From a virus (taxonomy: Duplodnaviria > Caudoviricetes), in the IMG/VR virus record IMGVR_UViG_3300020129_000334, positions 1-62,160 of that record: a DNA stretch of 62,160 nt. One strand, given 5' to 3'. Each line of letters starts with the position of its first letter. Position 1 is the stretch's first letter. A program made the position numbers and the translations under genes. This document shows positions 3,019 to 47,621 of this stretch, piece after piece. The notes below the pieces were generated by a model. It worked only from the letters and a program-made list of their open reading frames with translations. It did no database searches and was not told the DNA's origin.

Positions 3019-4566
3019 TCACGTTGTCCTTCGCTCCTTCGGCCACGTCACGTCCCAGCCATCGGATACGTCAATCTCCCGCACCTCCACGTTGGCCTTG
3101 CGCAGGCGGCGAGCCAGGTCGGTCGTACTGCGGCCTCCGGGGAAGGCGATCACGACGTCCGGCTTCTCCACGCCATCGTAGGTCTCGTAGCTGATGCGGT
3201 TGTCCTTGGCCCAGCTCCGCGCATAGCTTTCGACGCCGCTCCCGCCATTCTGCAGAACCATGTCCACGCCGCGCTCGGCCTGAAGGGCGTCCAGGTGCTT
3301 GCGAACGATGACGCGGCGGTGATTGCCGATCTTGGATCGCGAGCCGATGACGAGGACGCGCACGCCAAAAGCAGCGGTGGGGGTAGTCCCCTTTCCGGAA
3401 ACCTTACCGGAGGACGCCGCCTCGCCCCTGGTTCCATTCGCCTCCGGCAGCATCCCCCGCGCCGCCGCGAAGCGAAGGACATCCGCCGTCGAATGCGCCC
3501 CGACCTTCCTGTTGATCTTGGCGCGGTGTGTCTGAACCGTCTTGATGCTGAGCCCCAGCTTCTTCGCGATGCCGGCATTGGTGGCGCCGTCCACGATCAG
3601 ATCGAACACCTCCCGCTCGCGTGCCGAAAGCTTCTCGAGCCCAGAGTCGGTGCGGACCGGAGCCTTCGGAATCTCAAGCCCATGAGCGAAACGAACGACG
3701 TCCGCCGTCGAATGGGCCGTACCGAGCACACGGTAAATGCTGCCGAGGTGCGTTCGGATCGTGCTGATGCCGAGCCCGAGCTTTGCGGCGATCTCATTTC
3801 CGCTCATTCCCTCTGCAACCAAGTCGAACACCTCGCGCTCCCGTGGGGTCAGCTTCGCGAGCTTCGACACATCCGGTGGCGCGATCCTGGACGGGGGCGC
3901 TTCCCTCAGGTTCAGTCGCTTGGCCAGCCGCGCCATCGCTGACTCGAGCGGGCCCAGTTGCAGCGCCAGGCCGATCGCCGCCAGCTCGCCGACGTCGGAG
4001 CGTGCCGCCTGCTCGAGAAGCTGCACGACCGTCGCGATCGCCTCGAGCCCCTCACGTGCCGGGCTTGTGGCCGAGGCCTCCCCAATGAGCGCGCCGAGCG
4101 GAACACCGAGCCCCTTCGCCAAACCGATCGCTGTCGAAAACTTCGGGTCCACGTTTCCCCATTCCATGCGTGAGATTTGCGTGTGATGCGTTGAGCTTCG
4201 CTTGGCCAACTCCGCCTGCGTCCATCCGCGCGCCTCGCGAAGAGCGGCCAGCTGCTTCCCGAAGTCCGTCATGCTCGGAATCTCCGCGATCGGCTCCAGC
4301 TCCTCGGCCGGTGGCAGATCGGGAATGTCGTTCGGATCGCCGTCGAGCAATTGGCCCATGGTGATGCCGAAGACGTGCGCCAGGTTCGCGAGCGTGGAGA
4401 GATGCAGGTCCATGTTGGCCTCCCCCAGCTCCAGCCGATTCACCTGACGCCGATCCGTCCCCGTCTTCTTGCCCAGCTCCCCCAAGCTCCACCCGCGAGC
4501 CGCCCGAAGCGCCCGCACGCGCGTAGACAGAACGGCGCCCAGTCCCGGCGGAAGTTGACCCCTCAT
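3019..4566 (-). CDS. Multidomain transcription regulator: 2x XRE HTH, 2x LuxR HTH, C-terminal SLOG (DUF2493/YspA-like) domain
   Basis: RVRALRAARGWSLGELG and LAALREARGWTQAELA (XRE); LTPREREVFDL and LSAREREVFDL...LGLSIKTVQTH (LuxR); RVLVIGSR...NGGSGVESYARSWA...PDVVIAFPGGRSTTD (SLOG-like). Confidence 0.85.
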   Translation of the reverse strand: MRGQLPPGLGAVLSTRVRALRAARGWSLGELGKKTGTDRRQVNRLELGEANMDLHLSTLANLAHVFGITMGQLLDGDPNDIPDLPPAEELEPIAEIPSMTDFGKQLAALREARGWTQAELAKRSSTHHTQISRMEWGNVDPKFSTAIGLAKGLGVPLGALIGEASATSPAREGLEAIATVVQLLEQAARSDVGELAAIGLALQLGPLESAMARLAKRLNLREAPPSRIAPPDVSKLAKLTPREREVFDLVAEGMSGNEIAAKLGLGISTIRTHLGSIYRVLGTAHSTADVVRFAHGLEIPKAPVRTDSGLEKLSAREREVFDLIVDGATNAGIAKKLGLSIKTVQTHRAKINRKVGAHSTADVLRFAAARGMLPEANGTRGEAASSGKVSGKGTTPTAAFGVRVLVIGSRSKIGNHRRVIVRKHLDALQAERGVDMVLQNGGSGVESYARSWAKDNRISYETYDGVEKPDVVIAFPGGRSTTDLARRLRKANVEVREIDVSDGWDVTWPKERRTT

Positions 4567-9564: not shown

Positions 9565-10128
9565 TCAGAGGCTCAGTTGCCAGTACCAGTGCTCCCAGGG
9601 CTCCCAGTCGGCATCGTTCGCGCCCCCGAGCTTGACCTCCGCATAGAAACCGCTCGTCCAGCCTCCGATGGGATCGCAGATCGTGGCATTGCTGCACCAC
9701 ATGCGGCGGAGGACCAGGCCGTCATTGTCGTGCGTGATCTTCCCGTTCCAATTCAGCGTCCACCGCTGGCGAGGATTGTTCGGGTCGCAATTGACCGTGC
9801 CGATATTGTAGGCCAGATGGTCCCCAAACTCGTCCAGATTGCTAAGGCACTTCCAATTCCACTTGCTGACGATCTGGTGCGTGTTGAGGTTGTAGGCCCA
9901 TTGCTGATTGATCAGGCCATTGCAGTCCCACATCGCCACGTAGGCGCCATTCGTGTTGTTGAAGGCATACACGTCGAGGCACTGGCCGGCTGCCTTCAAA
10001 GAGCCGATATCGTAGGTGGGCGGCGCGGAGACGGCTTGGGCCTGTGTGCTGGTTTCCTCGCTCGAGGTAACAGGTGCGGCGCAGGCGGCGAGAGCGAGAG
10101 CGAAGATGAAAATGTATTTGCGGATCAC
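9565..10128 (-). CDS. Ricin-B (beta-trefoil) lectin lipoprotein, paralogue 3
   Basis: Lipobox LAAC; GQCLDV...WDCNGLINQQW, KCL...NCDPNNPRQRW (QxW repeats). Confidence 0.85.
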   Translation of the reverse strand: MIRKYIFIFALALAACAAPVTSSEETSTQAQAVSAPPTYDIGSLKAAGQCLDVYAFNNTNGAYVAMWDCNGLINQQWAYNLNTHQIVSKWNWKCLSNLDEFGDHLAYNIGTVNCDPNNPRQRWTLNWNGKITHDNDGLVLRRMWCSNATICDPIGGWTSGFYAEVKLGGANDADWEPWEHWYWQLSL

Positions 10129-10159
10129 GATGGTCCTCGTTTTGCGGGTGAGCGATTCG

Positions 10160-10750
10160 TCAATTGACGGTCAGTTGCCAGGTCCAGCGTTCCCAGGTCT
10201 GCCAATCGGCGTCATCGCACTTCCCGAGCATTACGGCCGTCCAATAGCCGTGCGTATAGCCCCCAGCGCCGTCCGGATTCGTGACTGCATGGGTGAACCA
10301 CTGACGACGCATGCACCATTCTGGATGGGTGTCGTAGATGATCTTTCCGTTCCAGTTGAGCGTAAACCGCTGGCGCTCGTCGTTGGGATCGCAGTCATTC
10401 ATGCCGATGGATATAGCCCCCATCCCGTACCAATCGTGATTCCACGTGGTAAGGCATTTCCAACTCCACTGGCTCACGATCTGGTGCGTGGCGAAGTTAT
10501 AGGCCCACTTCTGATTTTGGAGACCGTTGCAGTCCCAATTGGTCAGCGTACCGAGGGCGCTAAGTGTGTTGAAAGCGTAGACGTCGAGGCAATAGCCGTT
10601 CTCCTTCAAAGATCCGATGTCATAGCCGGGGGGCGCAACGACGGCCTGCGATTGGCTGCCGGTTTCTTCGGATGACGACGTGGGAGCCACGCACCCGGGC
10701 GCAGTCAGCGCAACGAAGATGGCCAACGGGAAAGTCTTACGAATCATCAT
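10160..10750 (-). CDS. Ricin-B lectin lipoprotein, paralogue 2
   Basis: Lipobox-like APGC; GYCLDV...WDCNGLQNQKW; colinear with paralogue 3. Confidence 0.85.
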   Translation of the reverse strand: MMIRKTFPLAIFVALTAPGCVAPTSSSEETGSQSQAVVAPPGYDIGSLKENGYCLDVYAFNTLSALGTLTNWDCNGLQNQKWAYNFATHQIVSQWSWKCLTTWNHDWYGMGAISIGMNDCDPNDERQRFTLNWNGKIIYDTHPEWCMRRQWFTHAVTNPDGAGGYTHGYWTAVMLGKCDDADWQTWERWTWQLTVN

Positions 10751-10770
10751 GTCCTCTTTGCGGTTGGATT

Positions 10771-11283
10771 TCAGTCCCAAGCGAAGGTGGAGTAATAAGG
10801 CCATTCGGAATCGTGGCAGCCGGCGAGAAACAAAGCGTCCCCGCTCCCATGGCTGTTGCCGGGGCTATGGTCCCAGTATTGGGCACGCAGGCACTTGCCA
10901 TCGTACTGGTTGATGATCTCGCCGCTGAGGCTGTCGAATGACCAGCGCTGATTTGGCAGTCCGTTGCAGTCCCAAAGGCCAACGGAGGTATGGTCAAAGC
11001 CGATGTTGTCGAGGCACTTGCCGTTGTACTTCGAGACGATCGCATGCGTGTCGGCGTTGTAGACCCAGCCCTGATTGACGAGGCCGTTGCAGTCCCAGAG
11101 ATCGAGCGTGAGATTGCCGTTGCGCGTGTTGAACGAGAAGACGTCGAGGCAAAGACCGCGGGTCCGGATCGTCCCGAGATCGGTGACATACGCCTCGCTC
11201 GTTGTGCCGGTGTCTTCGGATGGCGCTGGGGCCCCACATCCGCAAAGAAGCGCGAGCAGCCCGAGGGGAATTAGCCGGCGCAT
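10771..11283 (-). CDS. Ricin-B lectin lipoprotein, paralogue 1
   Basis: Lipobox LCGC; GLCLDV...WDCNGLVNQGW, GKCLD...WDCNGLPNQRW, GKCL. Confidence 0.85.
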   Translation of the reverse strand: MRRLIPLGLLALLCGCGAPAPSEDTGTTSEAYVTDLGTIRTRGLCLDVFSFNTRNGNLTLDLWDCNGLVNQGWVYNADTHAIVSKYNGKCLDNIGFDHTSVGLWDCNGLPNQRWSFDSLSGEIINQYDGKCLRAQYWDHSPGNSHGSGDALFLAGCHDSEWPYYSTFAWD

Positions 11284-11615
11284 CAATAATACTCGCGGGT
11301 CAGGCCGAGCCGCCGGAGGTCGTCCTCTTTCAGGCGGTACGTTTCGTTCGGCACCACGTGGGCGACCATGAACGTGTAGTAAATGATCTGGTCGGAATGC
11401 TTGCGAATGCCATCACGCATTCCTTGCTTGGGATCTCCGGAAGAGGACATCTTGCCAATGCGTCGCTCCTCTTCTCCGAGCACCGCGTCCATCTCCTCGA
11501 GCTTCGCGAGCTGCCCCTTGTAGTTCGCGAGCTTGTCTTCGTGGTACTTCAGGCGCCCCGCGAGCATGTCTTTCAGTTCGGCACTCTTGAGGTCGATCTG
11601 CAGTCCTTCGATCAT
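11283..11615 (-). CDS. Hypothetical helical protein
   Basis: AAAGGAG RBS. Confidence 0.8.
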   Translation of the reverse strand: MIEGLQIDLKSAELKDMLAGRLKYHEDKLANYKGQLAKLEEMDAVLGEEERRIGKMSSSGDPKQGMRDGIRKHSDQIIYYTFMVAHVVPNETYRLKEDDLRRLGLTREYY

Positions 11616-41716: not shown

Positions 41717-42420
41717 TCTTCGCGGCCCCAGCGGCACAGCCCCCGCCGCTCCAGCTCTTTGCCGAGGTGCGACCGATGAGCAATTCCCACTGGCCGGACT
41801 CCAACCTGATGGCGCTGAAGGGCGTCGCCGCGCGCCTGGGCATCGAATGGCGGGATCTTCTCGCCGTCATGGCCAACGAGAGCGCGTGCCTGCCGGACCC
41901 CCCGCACAACGGCCCTGCGCGCGGCCTGATTCAGTTTGAGCCGGAGACGCTGCACCGGTTGGGCTGGAACGGGAGCCCCAACGACTTCGCGCGGGCCAAC
42001 GGGGTAGCGGAGCAGCTCGATTACGTGGAGCGGTACTACCTGCCGTACGCGCGCTCAGGCTTGCTCGCTCCGGGGCTTGGGGCGCTCTATACGGCGACGT
42101 TCCTCCCGGCCCTTCTTCGCCATGCGGGGGACACCGATTACGTGCTCTGCGGGCTGACAGGGCCCCTGGCGTGGGCGTACCGCTCTAACCGCGGATTCGA
42201 TCGCGAAGGGAAGGGGACGATCACCGTCGGGGACCTCATGACCGCGGCCCAGCATGCCCTTGAGCGCGTAGGGCTGGCCCAGGAGATCATCGCCCGGCTG
42301 GAAGCGATCGAAGGGGATGCCGAGCCCGCCGCCGTGGCCATTGACGTGACCGATGGGGGCCAGGATAAGCCGGCCTTCCTCGTTCCGCCGGCCAATGACA
42401 CGGACGAAGAGGCGGGATAA
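41713..42420 (+). CDS. Endolysin, lytic transglycosylase/lysozyme fold
   Basis: LLAVMANES (catalytic Glu), ARGLIQF, EQLDYVERY; start uncertain. Confidence 0.8.
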   Translation: MIFAAPAAQPPPLQLFAEVRPMSNSHWPDSNLMALKGVAARLGIEWRDLLAVMANESACLPDPPHNGPARGLIQFEPETLHRLGWNGSPNDFARANGVAEQLDYVERYYLPYARSGLLAPGLGALYTATFLPALLRHAGDTDYVLCGLTGPLAWAYRSNRGFDREGKGTITVGDLMTAAQHALERVGLAQEIIARLEAIEGDAEPAAVAIDVTDGGQDKPAFLVPPANDTDEEAG

Positions 42421-42421
42421 A

Positions 42422-42560
42422 GCGCGGGCGACAAAATCGCAGTGTCTGGGGGTCAGGCTTGCGCCCGGCCAAGAAATTCGCCTTTCGGCGCCAGCTCCTG
42501 CTGGTACGAGGTGGAGTCGAACCACTTCCTGGATGTAGACCCTACGGCATTCGCCCGCGC
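42422..42560 (-). ncRNA. Y-RNA-like RNA 3 (T-loop and multi-hairpin module)
   Basis: Terminal stem GCGCGGGCGA-AUGC...UUUUG-UCGCCCGCGC; GUGG-UUCGACU-CCAC; CGCC-GAAA-GGCG; GGGC-GCAA-GCCU. Confidence 0.75.
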
Positions 42561-42572
42561 CAGCAGCGTAGC

Positions 42573-42755
42573 CTACGTCTTCGGGCAGCGACAGCCGTTA
42601 TTGAGGATCACGTCCAGCTCAAGACGGACCGCCTCGTAGGCCGCCCCACGAAGCTTGTGCTCCTCGCCCGCTAGAGGCTGAAGACGAATCCGCACGTCCG
42701 ACTCCGCCTCGCAGACGTCGCAGATCACGTTGAGGTAGATTCGCGGGTGCTTCAT
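42573..42755 (-). CDS. Small putative Zn-binding protein within the ncRNA array (60 aa)
   Basis: MKHPRIYLNVICDVC...GCRCPKT; fills the gap between RNA 2 and RNA 3. Confidence 0.55.
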   Translation of the reverse strand: MKHPRIYLNVICDVCEAESDVRIRLQPLAGEEHKLRGAAYEAVRLELDVILNNGCRCPKT

Positions 42756-42767
42756 GGGCTGAAAAGT

Positions 42768-42835
42768 GCCGACGACAAGGGTACTGCTGGCCGGACTCGA
42801 CGTTTGCGATGTAGAGCCCGATTGCATTCGTCGGC
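42768..42835 (-). ncRNA. Y-RNA-like RNA 2 (minimal, 68 nt)
   Basis: GCCGACGA-AUGC...CUUG-UCGUCGGC terminal stem; inner stem UCGGGCUC/GAGUCCGG. Confidence 0.7.
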
Positions 42836-42843
42836 TGAATAGC

Positions 42844-42978
42844 GCTGGTGACAAAGGGCGTAGAGATGTTTTTCGCGCTCTACCAATTGAGCTACCGCAG
42901 ACTCGCGCCTGCGACCTGGACTCGAACCAGGAGCCTCGACTGTTACAAGCAGTGTAATCCCTACAAGCATTCACCAGC
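42844..42978 (-). ncRNA. YrlA-like Y RNA (permuted tRNA mimic)
   Basis: GCUGGUGA-AUGC...UUUG-UCACCAGC; T arm CCUGG-UUCGAGU-CCAGG; acceptor-like stem closed by GCGA; D arm UA-GCUC-AAUUGGUA-GAGC. Confidence 0.85.
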
Positions 42979-42980
42979 AG

Positions 42981-43075
42981 TCCACGCCAGCGGAATCGAA
43001 CCGCCGCCCCCCGGACCTCTCCCGGCTTTCCCTTTCAGAGCCACGGAAGCAATTCGGGCACACCGAGCGCGTGGA
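42981..43075 (-). ncRNA. tRNA-like structured RNA (not a canonical tRNA)
   Basis: UCCACGC/GCGUGGA closing stem; T arm GGCGG-UUCGAUU-CCGCU; no canonical D or anticodon arm. Confidence 0.55.
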
Positions 43076-43166
43076 AACGGGAAGGGCATCAACGAGTCGC
43101 CAAGCTTTGAAGCAGCTCGCCACCCCCTTCCCCTAGAGGCCTAACAGACGAATCCCGGGTCGTCCA

Positions 43167-43550
43167 TCACCGTTTGCCCGCAGCGCCCACGTAGGCATTG
43201 AAGGTGCTGGTAAAGGCGGCCTTCCAGCTCCAATCGTCCATGACCCAGGCCGCGAATTGCTGGTCCGTGAGGTTGATTTCGGTGAGCGTCGTCATCTCCA
43301 GCGCCTTGATCGCGCGGTCGTAGTCCTTCGTATGCTCGCTGGGCTCCATGACGGCAAAGTGCGTCGTGACCGGCTTTCCCGTCTTCGCGTCCCGCAGCGC
43401 ATTCTCCAGCATGGCGATCACTTCATTGCGGAAGCCCTCGGCGGCTACCTTGTACTGCGCTTCATGGTCCTTTCGGTTCTTCAGCACGACGGCCAGCAGC
43501 TCGGCCTTGTTGACCGGAATCAGGTTTCGTCCGTCAGGATTCTGGAACAC
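43167..43550 (-). CDS. Conserved-looking phage hypothetical protein
   Basis: VNKAELL...NRKDH...PSEHTKDYDRAI..LEM...VMDDWSWK; GGGAGG before GTG. The start could lie further upstream. Confidence 0.75.
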   Translation of the reverse strand: MFQNPDGRNLIPVNKAELLAVVLKNRKDHEAQYKVAAEGFRNEVIAMLENALRDAKTGKPVTTHFAVMEPSEHTKDYDRAIKALEMTTLTEINLTDQQFAAWVMDDWSWKAAFTSTFNAYVGAAGKR

Positions 43551-43629
43551 GGCTCCTCCCTTCGTTTCAGTGGGTGAGATCAAGCGTGCTTCGTAAACGT
43601 CATAGCCAGCGAATTCGAGCGGCATCCAA

Positions 43630-44154
43630 TCAGAAGGGGATGTCATCGTCGTCGGTCCCCGTGCCGCCAAAGTCCACGACGTCATTCGCCGGGTCGTTGC
43701 TGAGGTCGAGCGGCGGTGCGGTGTAGTCCTGCGCGCGCGGTACCGGCACAAGCGACGTGTCCTGGCTCCCGCCCTGCTGCCATCCGCTCTTGATTCGCAA
43801 GGCCCAGCCTCGAGCGCGACGTGCATCCAGGCGCTTGAATGTCGAGGTCAGCCGCTGCTTTGAATCGACGCGGTTCTGCTCATCGTCCTTCTTGGCCTGC
43901 CATTCCAGGAAGCCGGCGAGCGATTCGAGGAAGTCGGGCGGACAATGGCTGTAGGGCTTCCCGCGCTGGCTGGGACCCGTCCACTTCGGCGGATCGTTGC
44001 GCACGAGGGGATTGCCGTACTTGCCATCGAGCTCATTCGGTAGGCTCGTCGGCTGCGCAGTCGGATTGCGAGCCAGGATGGCCTCGAGCACCGATACGCG
44101 CTTCTTCAGGTCGTCCAGCTCGGCGCCGACGTTTCGATAATCTCGCTCGGCCAT
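43630..44154 (-). CDS. Protein with SSB-like acidic C-terminal tip (DDDDIPF)
   Basis: Position in the recombination operon; no obvious OB fold. Confidence 0.7.
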   Translation of the reverse strand: MAERDYRNVGAELDDLKKRVSVLEAILARNPTAQPTSLPNELDGKYGNPLVRNDPPKWTGPSQRGKPYSHCPPDFLESLAGFLEWQAKKDDEQNRVDSKQRLTSTFKRLDARRARGWALRIKSGWQQGGSQDTSLVPVPRAQDYTAPPLDLSNDPANDVVDFGGTGTDDDDIPF

Positions 44155-44156
44155 GA

Positions 44157-45230
44157 TTACCCCTTCAGGATGCGGATTCCCGCGCTTTCTCGGTTCGAAT
44201 ACGAGCAGCTCGCGATCTCCTCGTCGGTAGCCCCCTTGGCGCGAGCAAGAGCGATGAGATCGGACACGCTGGTGCGATTGACGTTGCGGTAGGTCTCCTT
44301 GAGGATGCCGCCCTCCACCCGCCATTCCTTCCCATCGACGAAGTGGGCGACCCCCGCCTTGAGCTGCTTGGCCAGAGCCTCGTACGTCTTCAGGCGGTGA
44401 AGGACATAGGCGGCCTCTTCGGCATCGTTCGGCGTGAAGGTAAGCGAGCGGCCGTTTTCGTTCGCCGGCAGGAGCGAGTCCATCTTCGTCAGCACACCCT
44501 GCGTCTCGGGGCAGCGGCCGAACGCTCCGCAACGAAGCTCCGTGCAGTGGGGCCCAGGATTCGGCGCGGCGTTGCCCACCTCGTCCAGAAGATCGTACGT
44601 GTCGCTGGCGATGGCCTCGATCTCAAGCGGCTTGAAGGTGCGGACGTGATGCGAAACGCCGTCCTCCGTCGCATGAAGGAGCCCGCCGCGCACCTGAGAC
44701 ACGCCGAAGCACCACGCGACTGCCAAGGCGTTGAGCCCGATCTGGCCCCAATAGCCCTCGCTCGTGTGGCCCGTCTTCCAGTCGAGGATGAGCGGCATAT
44801 CGGCACCAACGAGCGCGCTCCCGCCCGGCATCAAGAGGTCGAGCGTCATGCCGAATTGAAAGGGGGCCTTGAGGTCGCCGTAGTCCCGCACGCCCGCCGT
44901 CGTCACGGCCCAGGCGCGGCGCTTCTCGAGGTCCACCGCCATCTTCAGCTCGGCGAAAGCTGCGTCGTTGCCCACGAACGTCTCGAGCCACGCGAGCATG
45001 TGCTTCCAGACGCGGAGCATGCGCGGAAGCTGGTCCTCCACGTCGTACTCACGCGCGATCAGCACGACGTCCGGGTACGTATGCGTCTTGACCCAAACCT
45101 CCCCGCACTTGTGGAGCGCTCGGCCGAAGCGAGAATCCTCACTGTCCCCCCAACGGTCCATCTCTTCGGCCTCCCGGAACGGATAGCGGCACTTGGCGAG
45201 GAGGGCGGCCTTGCTGGCGCTAAACTTCAC
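44157..45230 (-). CDS. PD-(D/E)XK (RecB/Cas4-like) exonuclease
   Basis: FSASK...C, GRALH, ELKM, TLDLL, ILDWKTG, Q...A, PGPHC...C...CP. Confidence 0.85.
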   Translation of the reverse strand: MKFSASKAALLAKCRYPFREAEEMDRWGDSEDSRFGRALHKCGEVWVKTHTYPDVVLIAREYDVEDQLPRMLRVWKHMLAWLETFVGNDAAFAELKMAVDLEKRRAWAVTTAGVRDYGDLKAPFQFGMTLDLLMPGGSALVGADMPLILDWKTGHTSEGYWGQIGLNALAVAWCFGVSQVRGGLLHATEDGVSHHVRTFKPLEIEAIASDTYDLLDEVGNAAPNPGPHCTELRCGAFGRCPETQGVLTKMDSLLPANENGRSLTFTPNDAEEAAYVLHRLKTYEALAKQLKAGVAHFVDGKEWRVEGGILKETYRNVNRTSVSDLIALARAKGATDEEIASCSYSNRESAGIRILKG

Positions 45231-45412
45231 GGCAACCCCTCCACGAATCGGTAGTAGAAGTCGCGCCCGACGTAGGCATCGCACCGGCGGCAGAGAAAGC
45301 GGCGCTTCGGTCGTTGGGCTCGGAGACGAAAGCGGGGGTCCAGCGTCACGTGGCCTTCGGGGCAGACGATGATCCAGACGCCTTCAGGTGGAGAGACCTT
45401 CTCGTCGCTCAC
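45227..45412 (-). CDS. Small Zn-ribbon protein
   Basis: CPEGH and CRRC motifs; GTGA overlaps. Confidence 0.55.
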   Translation of the reverse strand: MSDEKVSPPEGVWIIVCPEGHVTLDPRFRLRAQRPKRRFLCRRCDAYVGRDFYYRFVEGLP

Positions 45413-45564
45413 CGCAGCACCTTCGGGTCGTAGCAAGTGCCTCCCGACGGCTCGCCACCGCGATCCCGGCACTCACGCCGCTCGCAAGCGCGTTCCGTCA
45501 ACAAGCACAGGATGATGCCGGCCCACACCCCGAGATAGAGCCCGAGCTTCGTCCCGCTGCTCAC
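45409..45564 (-). CDS. Small membrane protein (51 aa)
   Basis: Fills the gap with GTGA overlaps; [16 protein letters not shown]. Confidence 0.5.
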
Positions 45565-46373
45565 GGCACCGGCCCCCGCAGGCGCTCCGCATGGATGCCG
45601 TACTCGACGTCGAGCGCATTGCGGAGGTTGTCGCGGAACGGCAGCGAGTGCGCGTGGGCGATGATGGCGTCGAGAGCTGCGAGCGTCGGCGCATTGGCCA
45701 TCGCTTCCGCCATCTCGCGCGCCACCTCCGACTGCTTGCGCCCCTGGGGCTTCGTCTCGGCCTGGGGAGGAGCCCCGTTGTCGTTGGCCGGCTCGCGGCG
45801 CCCGTTGTCGTTGGCCGGCGGGTCGGCCTGGGCCATCTCGTCGTCGGTGTAGAGGTTGGCCAAATCCTCCGGGAACGCGCGACGCAGGGCCAGAGCCTCA
45901 GCGCACTTCGCGATCATGACCTCGGGCATCTTCAGCCAAAGGTTGGCGCTGGAGTACGAGGTGAATCGAGCGACGCCCCACATGACTTCGCGGAAGCCCT
46001 TGCGGTAGACCCCGATCTTCGCCGCAGCAGGCGCTCCCTTGTCGAGCCAGACGTCTTTCCAGACGCCATCCGGGCCGCACCAGAAGGGACCAACCTGGCC
46101 CTCGTACTCGCGCGTGCGGGCGGCGATGACCCGAAAACCATCGATTGACGTTTGGAAGGTGACGCGGTACTCACCGCCCGCCTGCCGCTTGATGGCGTAG
46201 ATTTGCTTGCGGAAAGGGTCGAGCTTCGAACGTTTACAGACCTCAACGAACAGAGCGAATTCGGCATCCGTGAGATCGCGCGCGACCGTCCGCTTCAGCA
46301 CGTCGAGCTGATCGGTCGTGTACTGCACCAGCGCCGAATGATCAGGCGTCATGGCGGCCAAAGCCGTAGACAT
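45561..46373 (-). CDS. bet: Single-strand annealing recombinase, Bet/RecT family
   Basis: [41 protein letters not shown]. Confidence 0.92.
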
Positions 46374-46447
46374 CGGCTCCCCCTTTCACTTGGGAAATGG
46401 GCAAGGGGCGCCAAACGCTTACGCGTCCAACACCCCAAGCGAGCCGC

Positions 46448-46477
46448 AACCTACGCTTTCACTTGCAACACTTGCAA
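46448..46477 (-). promoter_or_regulatory. Promoter of the recombination/ncRNA operon
   Basis: TTGCAA-18-TAGGTT, with a second TTGCAA in the spacer. Confidence 0.5.
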
Positions 46478-46527
46478 GCGTTATTTTCTACACAGGTTTC
46501 CCACCCGTGACCCGCTTTGAAAGCGCC

Positions 46528-47220
46528 TTACTCCGGGCCTGCGTTTCGCGGCGTTTCCTCGGGAGCGTTGCGCGGGTCGGCGATCTTCAAGGCCGCTTCC
46601 AGGCGATCCAGAACTTGCTGCCAGTGGCTGGGCGTCGGCAGGTCGCGATCCCCATGCGTGCCGTAGCCGCTGCGTGCCGTTTCGACGGCCTGCTCGGGCC
46701 AATTCCGCCCATTCTCGCCATGGTAGAGCAGGCAAAGCTCCAGGTTGGGGAAGCGCGCGTCCTTCAGGTGCACGAGTCGCGTCAATGCCGCCAAACGATG
46801 GCCCTCCCCGGTCGCCCACTTGGACGAATCGCGGGAAGGTACAGGGTGCGTCCCGTTCTGGGCAACTGCTTTGGGCTTGGGCGGCGCGAGCTTGGGCGGA
46901 TTCGCCGCGAGGTGCTGACGTCGCTCTTTCCACTTCGGCAGATCGGCCTCTTTCGCGATGGCCTTTGCTGCTGCGGCCGGCGTGATCTCCAGGCTCGCGA
47001 GCTTGTCGATGATCTCGGTCGAGACCTGAAAGGCCACCGCCAGCGCTTGCCGCTTCCGGGCAGACAGGAGCGCGCTATGGCCGCTTTCAAGCTTCGAAAT
47101 GTCCGAGTACGAGAGCCCCTCGTCGTGCCCGCGGAGCACCAAGTCCTTCGGCGCGAGGCCAACTTTCTCACGAAGAGCCTTGAAAGCGGCTCCGATGTCG
47201 CGTTTATCTGCCACGATCAC
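46528..47220 (-). CDS. XRE-family repressor (CI-like)
   Basis: IGAAFKALREKVGL...SYSDISKLESGH; divergent from the Cro-like gene. Confidence 0.7.
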   Translation of the reverse strand: MIVADKRDIGAAFKALREKVGLAPKDLVLRGHDEGLSYSDISKLESGHSALLSARKRQALAVAFQVSTEIIDKLASLEITPAAAAKAIAKEADLPKWKERRQHLAANPPKLAPPKPKAVAQNGTHPVPSRDSSKWATGEGHRLAALTRLVHLKDARFPNLELCLLYHGENGRNWPEQAVETARSGYGTHGDRDLPTPSHWQQVLDRLEAALKIADPRNAPEETPRNAGPE

Positions 47221-47317
47221 AGTACCGAGCGGAACTAGTGCCCGGCCTCCCGGTTGTCTAGAGCGTCGAAAGTTTTGTCACTTCTGCAATCTTACTTTTC
47301 GACCTTGAAAGTAGCGC

Positions 47318-47346
47318 TTGCGCTGTACCAACTGGATCTGTACGGT
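47318..47346 (+). promoter_or_regulatory. Rightward early promoter
   Basis: TTGCGC-17-TACGGT, 8 nt before GTG at 47355. Confidence 0.5.
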
Positions 47347-47354
47347 CCCGGCTC

Positions 47355-47621
47355 GTGAAGAGTGAAAGGCGCGTTACGGCCGCGGGTCGAAAGCTGCGCG
47401 CGCTACTGAACCAGACGGGTGAGAGCCTCACGAGCTTCTGCCGACGTCATGCGTCGCTGCGGAAGCATCGGATTGCTGTTCTTCGGATCATCAACGGCGA
47501 CCGGTACCGGCTGATCCCGGCGGACACCGTGATTCGGCTGCGCAAGGCGATGCGAGAGGAAGGGATGGACCTGCCGGTCGAGGCGTTCGGGAGCGACACC
47601 GCTCGAAAACTCGCCGGGTGA
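47355..47621 (+). CDS. Cro-like HTH protein
   Basis: KLRALLNQTGESLTSFCRR...VLRIING; position. Confidence 0.55.
   Translation: MKSERRVTAAGRKLRALLNQTGESLTSFCRRHASLRKHRIAVLRIINGDRYRLIPADTVIRLRKAMREEGMDLPVEAFGSDTARKLAG

Follow-up and report, generated by a model that had tools for sequence, protein, structure and literature searches.

What would a phage do with RNAs that carry the docking handle for Ro60, an RNA-quality-control protein, when no gene for Ro60 is detected in its record? This question is raised by the viral record IMGVR_UViG_3300020129_000334, a linear stretch of 62,160 bases that was analysed at its full length and is called the window below. A row of three RNA units (U1, U2 and U3; Table 1) lies on its minus strand, and neither a Ro60 gene nor a vWA or RtcB gene is detected in the 62 kb. 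In the reading preferred here, which has about an even chance of being correct, the row is made up of a YrlA-type Y RNA (U1), a short hairpin Y RNA (U2) and a Y RNA with a T arm and extra hairpins (U3), stands at the end of a recombination operon and would load onto Ro60 supplied in trans.

Architecture and family membership of the RNA units

All three units are built on the same framework. Each is closed by a stem of 8-11 bp, the sequence of which is different in each unit (GCUGGUGA/UCACCAGC, GCCGACGA/UCGUCGGC and GCGCGGGCGA/UCGCCCGCGC). The 5' strand of the closing stem leads into a GAAUGC element and the 3' strand begins within a UUGUC element; a second stem, which contains GGG and is followed by UACA, is also common to the three. 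Judged by sequence, this arrangement of closing stem, G-N-C/U-G-A-A-U-G, second stem and UUGUC is the handle that binds Ro60/Rsr in characterised Y RNAs. The docking motif for Ro60 has been described as GNCGAAN0-1G on the 5' strand of the closing stem (Chen et al. 2014, PMC4201824). It is found exactly in U2 (GACGAAUG) and U3 (GGCGAAUG), and in the handle of U1 (GGUGAAUG) a U takes the place of the C of the motif, with the pairing base on the 3' strand altered to match. The original prediction had placed the units within one or two bases of these positions and had read the differing terminal stems and the four shared elements correctly on the minus strand.

The inner parts of the units are of three kinds. 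A permuted module of T arm and D arm is present in U1 only, U3 has a T arm alone, and U2 has neither, its second stem (CGGGCUC/GAGUCCG) being accompanied by no tRNA-like arm. The T arms of U1 and U3 are both canonical (GGUUCGAGUCC, GGUUCGACUCC), so that the claim in the original prediction that the internal modules differ completely has to be given up. Since the permuted module is confined to U1, U2 and U3 are Y-like rather than YrlA proper. By these features U1 is classed as YrlA-type, and U2 and U3 as YrlB-like, in the broad meaning given to that term by Chen et al. 2014. The predicted folds of U2 and U3 have minimum free energies (MFE) of -27.1 kcal/mol (z -2.73) and -67.1 kcal/mol (z -3.09), respectively, relative to shuffled sequences.

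The framework was searched for as a pattern, in which a stem of at least 8 bp closes GA|AUGC ... UYG|UC. This pattern occurs four times in the window, corresponding to the three units and one U1/U2 chimera. Since the mean over 200 dinucleotide shuffles was 0.075 occurrences and the maximum 1, the architecture is beyond chance. A pattern that combines the handle with a T arm has two matches in the window, with none expected.

The identity of U1 is indicated by the Rfam model of YrlA (RF02553), which it matches at 41.9 bits (E 1.5e-7) over all 114 model positions, the match taking in the handle, the T arm, the middle stem-loop and the D arm. YrlA matches were also obtained in 20 viral loci. None of these 24 matches, units beside Ro60 genes included, reaches the gathering score of 69 bits (range 30.8-60.8), and for this reason the Rfam cut-off is a poor bar for viral units and standard annotation would miss them. 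With the YrlB model, one viral short unit (L062:1406-1480) matches at 32.5 bits, the cut-off being 97.

Related viral units were sought in IMG/VR with the handle-plus-T-arm pattern taken from U1 and U3, which gave at least 128 stretches, and these were then subjected to the architecture test. Sixty-one distinct units in 31 loci were identified in this way; these and all further counts of viral units, loci and records are among the matches listed (128 IMG/VR stretches). U2 aligns with 12 short viral units. From 26 long units, 25 of them viral and the other U1 itself, a covariance model (R1) was built, the E-values of which are rough. When all 62,160 bases were searched with R1 on both strands and with filters off, U1, a member of the training set, scored 100.3 bits, U3 33.6 bits (E 5.5e-6) and U2 29.2 bits (E 5.5e-5). 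The other 30 matches in the window score at most 11.7 bits, this highest value belonging to a T arm just upstream of U1, beyond which the noise is at most 9.5 bits.

The stems of the viral family covary. Stem 2, which played no part in finding the units, pairs with its own partner at a mean of -10.95 kcal/mol, compared with -5.55 kcal/mol when partners are swapped between units (p 4e-29), and in 46 of 64 units the own partner is better than at least 95% of foreign ones. The values for the window are -10.3 kcal/mol in U1, -12.9 kcal/mol in U2 and -11.5 kcal/mol in U3, which are equalled by 3, 0 and 2 of 63 foreign partners, respectively. Of the 28 viral units not selected by the search pattern, 24 contain UACA. 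In the alignment of the 26 long units, U1 included, 15 of the 19 pairs predicted by RNAalifold show compensatory changes; 95.9% of the cells are paired, compared with 62.4% in shuffles, and the covariation score is 0.888, compared with 0.205 in shuffled alignments (reached by 0 of 500) and at most 0.186 in slid registers. In helix 3, the middle helix, which was not used for ascertainment, all seven pairs show compensatory double changes. Because no orthologous rows were found to align, this covariation supports the viral family rather than orthologues of these particular genes. One candidate for a related row, a pattern match (L006) beside a RecT gene whose product is 47% identical, was rejected as a chance match within coding sequence. 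Taken together, the YrlA match of U1, the R1 matches of U2 and U3 and the covarying stems of the viral family make it well supported that all three units are members of a Y-RNA-like family, as had been predicted.

The tRNA-like elements that had been predicted alongside the units reduce to a single weak one, which precedes U1 and is the only such element outside the units. Its MFE fold is cloverleaf-shaped (z -0.33) and its T arm is the 11.7-bit match of R1, but it is called by ARAGORN only at -ps80, with a 4-base anticodon. Neither ARAGORN at its default settings nor the Rfam tRNA model finds a tRNA gene in the window, this element included.

Contigs from four further soil-metagenome runs are identical to the row wherever they fit, and they supply neither variants nor starts nor ends. 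No E. coli genome matched the RNA region in a blastn search.

Ro60 genes and Y-RNA rows in viral records

A six-frame search of the 62-kb window with the Pfam TROVE family gave no match. Phage Ro60s are themselves weak TROVE matches, with scores of 13-33 bits in 18 of the 27 unit-bearing viral records, and a dedicated profile (A1) was therefore built from 18 phage Ro60 open reading frames (ORFs) of 470-651 amino acids (aa), which are 29-37% identical to the first of them and have a conserved MIDAS motif. Nine further records outside the profile are matched by A1 at 1e-30 to 1e-239, while the window has no match at E<=1. In an unfiltered six-frame local search with A1, the best score in the window is 1.6 bits, compared with 556-743 bits for four held-out Ro60s. 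Searches of the 62,160 bases for VWA, VWA_2 and RtcB likewise gave no matches, and family scans of about 45 ORFs of the window revealed no Ro60-related family. The predicted lack of a TROVE/vWA or RtcB ORF thus stands for the 62 kb, as far as Pfam and A1 can detect one.

The genome had been taken to be apparently complete, which is not borne out. The record has no end repeats, its completeness is about 86% according to CheckV, and ORFs are open at both of its ends. The row is 19 kb from one end and 42 kb from the other. Among 18 Ro60-positive records, the Ro60 gene is within 3 kb of the units in 12, at 4-6 kb in 2 and at least 10 kb away in 4; it is at least 17 kb away in 2 of the 18, both of them genomes of more than 230 kb. 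The Ro60-less, or orphan, state of the row is likely to be real on this evidence; it is likely and not proven because the record is only about 86% complete.

Rows of this type are widespread in viral contigs. Three to six different units stand in a row in, for example, L017, L022, L024, L029, L043, L062, L072, L107 and L110, and these rows mix long units with short hairpin units of 62-90 nucleotides (nt) that resemble U2. A T-arm motif is present in 38 of 49 long units and both a T and a D arm in 15 of 49, window units and duplicates being counted. The viral units are often interleaved with real tRNA genes at a spacing of 0-5 nt (L036:1128-1558(-), L107:296-762(+), L022:1341-1968(-) and L072:513-2975(+)).

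Most carriers also encode Ro60, which is found in 27 of the 38 viral records with units (27 records from the architecture test and 11 from R1). When only records of at least 90% completeness are considered, 14 of 18 have Ro60 and 3-4 of 18 are without it. Thirteen of these 14 Ro60-positive records are larger than 150 kb, the exception being G007, with 48 kb. The near-complete carriers without Ro60 are G001 (57 kb), G014 (70 kb), G020 (48 kb) and G036 (231 kb), the last of which has units that are weak matches; G001, G014 and G020 are negative with profile A1 as well. G014, which is complete with terminal repeats and has a three-unit row without Ro60, is the best analogue of the present record. 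Since no relationship between G014 and this phage is detected by portal or TerL, the Ro60-less state arose more than once. The novelty that had been seen in an orphan modular array is thereby divided: a mixed modular row is ordinary for phage Y-RNA loci, while the absence of Ro60 is uncommon but recurrent, and likely real.

Several other features were observed at the viral loci. In G014 (L156:7838-8632(+)), an ORF of 264 aa begins 50 bases past the three-unit row on the same strand and has a vWA match of 23.8 bits, at the cut-off; an hhalign comparison of its product with the phage Ro60 profile aligns the MIDAS motif only and shows no relationship. Some long units of 217-252 nt (L017:855-1106(-), and L021:2778-2994(-), which equals L022:1084-1300(-)) combine a normal Y handle with a stretch resembling 23S rRNA. 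In the L017 unit the resemblance covers bases 22-51, where identity to E. coli 23S rRNA is 93% and all 5426 genomes give a match; such units could be Y RNAs with an rRNA-mimic module. In G026, a record of 20% completeness, a class A RNase P RNA (L122:1-200(-); 143 bits, cut at the locus end) adjoins a YrlA-like unit and two tRNA genes; it could be phage-borne or belong to a mis-binned fragment of a host. A partial tmRNA match of 38 bits, cut by the locus end, is located about 1.3 kb past the four-unit row of a Ro60-encoding contig (L043:3382-3537(+)).

Gene context and host clues

The gene layout was read from ORFs supported by the GC content of third codon positions and from family scans (Pfam and PHROG); the GC content of the window is 63.5%. 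The row lies between two convergent blocks (Table 1). On the plus strand, the structural and lysis genes end with the SLT-domain lysin gene, the stop codon of which abuts the end of U3. On the minus strand, the RNA region follows the RecT and PD-(D/E)XK nuclease genes on the same strand. A consensus scan of positions 42000-47600 found no promoter or terminator site on the minus strand, so the predicted position at the end of the recombination operon is upheld, with no terminator-like site in between.

Table 1. Coordinates of the predicted RNA units, neighbouring elements and genes in the window
Feature	Positions	Strand	Details
Unit 1 (U1), YrlA-type Y RNA, 137 nt	42843..42979	minus	closing stem 9 bp
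U1 landmarks	GAAUGC 42972-42967; UACA 42956-42953; T arm loop 42928-42918; UUGUC 42854-42850	minus	
U1 D-arm-like GUAGCUCAAUUGGUAGAGC	42895-42877	minus	
Unit 2 (U2), short hairpin-type Y RNA, 68 nt	42768..42835	minus	handle GACGAAUGC ... CUUGUC
Unit 3 (U3), Y RNA with T arm and three extra hairpins, 141 nt	42421..42561	minus	closing stem 11 bp
U3 landmarks	GAAUGC 42552-42547; T arm loop 42523-42513; UUGUC 42434-42430	minus	two GNRA-type tetraloop hairpins
Weak tRNA-like element, 94 nt	42981..43074	minus	6-bp acceptor-like stem; canonical T arm GGCGGUUCGAUUCCGCU; ends 1-2 nt before U1
orf60, 60-aa ORF between U2 and U3	42573..42755	minus	CxxC ... CxC cysteines
Small protein, phrog_34511, directly upstream of RNA row	43167..~43646	minus	PHROG match 8.1e-21
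PD-(D/E)XK-type nuclease gene, weak match	44157..45284	minus	Pfam PF12705, E 0.0054, below cut-off
RecT-family single-strand annealing protein gene	45561..46373	minus	Pfam RecT 1.6e-30; phrog_2780 3.1e-65
Recombination operon	~47.2 -> 42.4 kb	minus	order: 230-aa ORF, RecT, PD-(D/E)XK nuclease, phrog_34511 protein, RNA region
SLT-domain lysin gene	stop codon 42420	plus	convergent with RNA row
Structural and lysis block	15.3-42.4 kb	plus	TerL, SU10-like portal, tape measure, tail genes, Rz-like protein, SLT-domain lysin

The gene directly upstream of the row is contained in an ORF of 219 aa (43167-43826, minus strand), of which residues ~100-219 alone align with homologues. Since these homologues measure 123-126 aa, the ORF is probably over-called, and its conserved part is the C-terminal ~120 aa. 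Structure prediction of the 219-aa ORF was unusable (predicted local distance difference test score of 43.7). Two roles were considered for this phrog_34511 protein and rejected: as a relative of Ro60 it has an hhalign probability of 0.08% against the phage-Ro60 profile, and as a Y-RNA partner by association it fails, there being no Y unit in 60 metagenome loci (249 kb) of its homologues. T-arm motifs, which are likely tRNA genes, are close by on the same strand in 8 of these 60 loci (L159-L218).

The cysteine-containing orf60 is probably a genuine small gene within the row of RNAs, to judge from its GC content by codon position (0.67/0.38/0.80), which resembles that of recT (0.67/0.47/0.83). 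It belongs to no Pfam or PHROG family, has no relatives in the viral contigs or fetched loci, and is without an obvious ribosome-binding site.

An integrase-like gene, an N6/N4 methylase gene and a replication initiator gene are located beyond the minus-strand operon, and the phage is best described as a temperate-looking soil phage. Two further minus-strand regions were observed. At 9565-11286, three adjoining ORFs (187, 214 and 171 aa) each encode a ricin-type beta-trefoil lectin domain, and at 3019-4566 an ORF of 515 aa combines two Cro/C1-type helix-turn-helix (HTH) domains, two LuxR/GerE (sigma-70 region 4-like) HTH domains and a C-terminal YspA-related SLOG domain.

Clues to the host are diverse. 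The nearest relatives of TerL are in Thermus and Meiothermus phages (38%), and relatives of its N-terminal part are found in metagenome-assembled genomes of Bacillota and in Gluconobacter. RecT is closest to proteins of cyanophages (45%), and the clusters of look-alikes of the integrase are mostly from Verrucomicrobiota and Acidobacteriota.

Proposed function and known systems

In the preferred reading, the RNAs would be transcribed together with the minus-strand recombination operon and then be excised by host RNA-processing enzymes. Release by tRNA-processing enzymes is indicated because viral units abut tRNA genes at 0-5 nt (L036, L107 and L022) and the tRNA-like element abuts U1, as real tRNAs do in other phages. 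Since the phage has no Ro60 gene in its record, the released RNAs would load onto Ro60 supplied in trans, most likely the Rsr of a host that possesses it. The differing inner modules may then couple or divert Ro60 to different partners, by tethering or sequestering it, examples being PNPase or tRNA-binding enzymes. It is reasonable to suppose that host Ro60 would be hijacked in this manner.

A wider and more tentative proposal, possible but put forward with some reserve, is that small temperate phages are equipped with modular Y RNAs as protein-free kits, with which they commandeer host Ro60 and thereby PNPase or tRNA-handling enzymes, each module redirecting it to another partner. Such a kit would be a host-takeover or anti-defence device made of RNA only, large phages would bring Ro60 with them as their hosts lack it, and the cysteine-rich product of orf60 could be a further partner.

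Several points weigh against the preferred reading. The fold energy of U1 is unexceptional (z -1.74). Nothing in the window is called at the curated thresholds of Rfam, U1 being well below its gathering cut-off, and for U2 and U3 no Rfam family, YrlB (RF02565) included, gives a match at E<=10. Model R1 was trained with U1 included and gives rough E-values. A DNA search of phages yielded no homologous row from a related phage, and the upstream protein, the nuclease, TerL and orf60, used as queries, led to no related loci in viral contigs. Host leads from TerL, RecT, the genome contigs and the protein atlas are conflicting or weak, and few of the sequenced bacteria, about 5%, have Ro60 (Chen et al. 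2014, PMC4201824). In addition, with a linear record of 86% completeness, a Ro60 gene could sit in the missing ~10 kb. Two checks suggested in the original prediction accordingly had mixed outcomes: the Rfam models recognise U1, below the cut-off, and leave U2 and U3 unmatched, and the stems covary in the viral family, with no homologous loci from related phages to compare.

The scarcity of Ro60 among bacteria (PMC4201824) would be no obstacle if the RNAs acted without Ro60, as mimics that bind host PNPase, tRNA-modifying or tRNA-processing enzymes, or tRNA-targeting defence nucleases, and so serve as sponges or decoys. Such a role is consistent with the canonical T arms of U1 and U3, with the D arm of U1 and with the location of units within tRNA arrays of other phages at 0-5 nt, as if they were handled like tRNAs. 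In the Thermus phage phiLo, moreover, both Y-like RNAs formed complexes with host PNPase in electrophoretic mobility shift assays without Ro60, and the host has no Ro60 (PMC12135203). However, what is conserved in the three units and in the 61 viral units is the Ro60-docking handle and not the inner modules, U2 has no tRNA-like module at all, and in 27 of 38 viral records a Ro60 gene accompanies the units. Action independent of Ro60 is the main alternative to the preferred reading but is held to be rather unlikely.

It is improbable, too, that the row belongs to an ordinary phage Ro60/Y-RNA system whose Ro60 gene is located in a portion of the genome missing from the record, even though the record is linear and 86% complete with ORFs open at both ends, and even though the gene is at least 10 kb from the units in 4 of 18 Ro60-positive records. 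Here the row and the gene would need to be separated by at least 19 kb, and distances of at least 17 kb are seen in 2 of 18 records, both of more than 230 kb. Near-complete Ro60-positive records are larger than 150 kb in 13 of 14 cases, whereas this phage has about 62-72 kb, and complete G001, G014 and G020 (48-70 kb) show that Ro60-less carriers exist. Decay is very improbable: the adjoining tRNA-like element looks degenerate and the window has no intact tRNA gene, as might be expected of functionless relics of a former Ro60/Y-RNA/tRNA island, but the closing stems of 8-11 bp are uninterrupted, and the handle motifs and second stems are intact in all three units. The identical copies in contigs of four further soil-metagenome runs also speak against a relic, although they attest persistence and not selection.

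The significance of the three units is twofold. Three intact Ro60-docking RNAs without Ro60 make it testable that phages manipulate the Ro60/PNPase RNA surveillance of the host by RNA alone, and the row is a natural set of variants, with one handle and different modules, for asking what the modules of Y RNAs do.

In the parts of the literature searched, phage Y RNAs are described beside Ro60 only and no Ro60-less phage row is mentioned, although such rows may already be in print. Membership of the published set of Y RNAs required a same-strand Ro60 gene at most 4 kb away (Chen et al. 2014, PMC4201824). Because the original members were found by searching beside Ro60 genes, Y RNAs without an adjoining Ro60 are invisible by design. 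U1 is most similar to YrlA (RF02553) of Salmonella Typhimurium, Mycobacterium smegmatis and mycobacteriophages, with which it shares the closing stem, the GNCGAAN0-1G-type handle, and the permuted succession of T arm, stem-loop and D arm. It differs from YrlA in its score of 41.9 bits against a cut-off of 69 and in the U for C in the handle with its compensating change, and, unlike the published set, it has no same-strand Ro60 gene within 4 kb.

U2, a short hairpin with the same handle, resembles YrlB (RF02565) of S. Typhimurium and M. smegmatis and Yrn2 of Deinococcus radiodurans, which is unstable when rsr is deleted (Chen et al. 2014, PMC4201824). The YrlB of M. smegmatis has a T arm without a D arm, as in U3 (PMC4201824). 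Neither U2 nor U3 matches the YrlB model at E<=10, and their inner sequences are unrelated to it.

The closest counterparts in arrangement are viral rows beside a phage-type Ro60 gene (L029/G007, L024/G006 and L043/G010). Rows of the L029/G007 type have a Ro60 of 470-651 aa and usually real tRNA genes between the units, neither of which is present in the window. They share with the row described here the handle, the mixture of long tRNA-like and short units, and the order of a protein gene followed by the RNAs on one strand.

Thermus phage phiLo carries its own Ro60 in a host that has none, whereas here the RNAs are found without the protein (PMC12135203). Its Yrl1 and Yrl2 are phage-encoded, stand in a row of more than one Y-like RNA and have the CGAA handle, as do the units of the window, and CGAA mutants tie this handle to Ro60 binding (PMC12135203). 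For the RNAs of phiLo, use against host RNA metabolism via PNPase has been proposed (PMC12135203), as it is proposed here for U1, U2 and U3.

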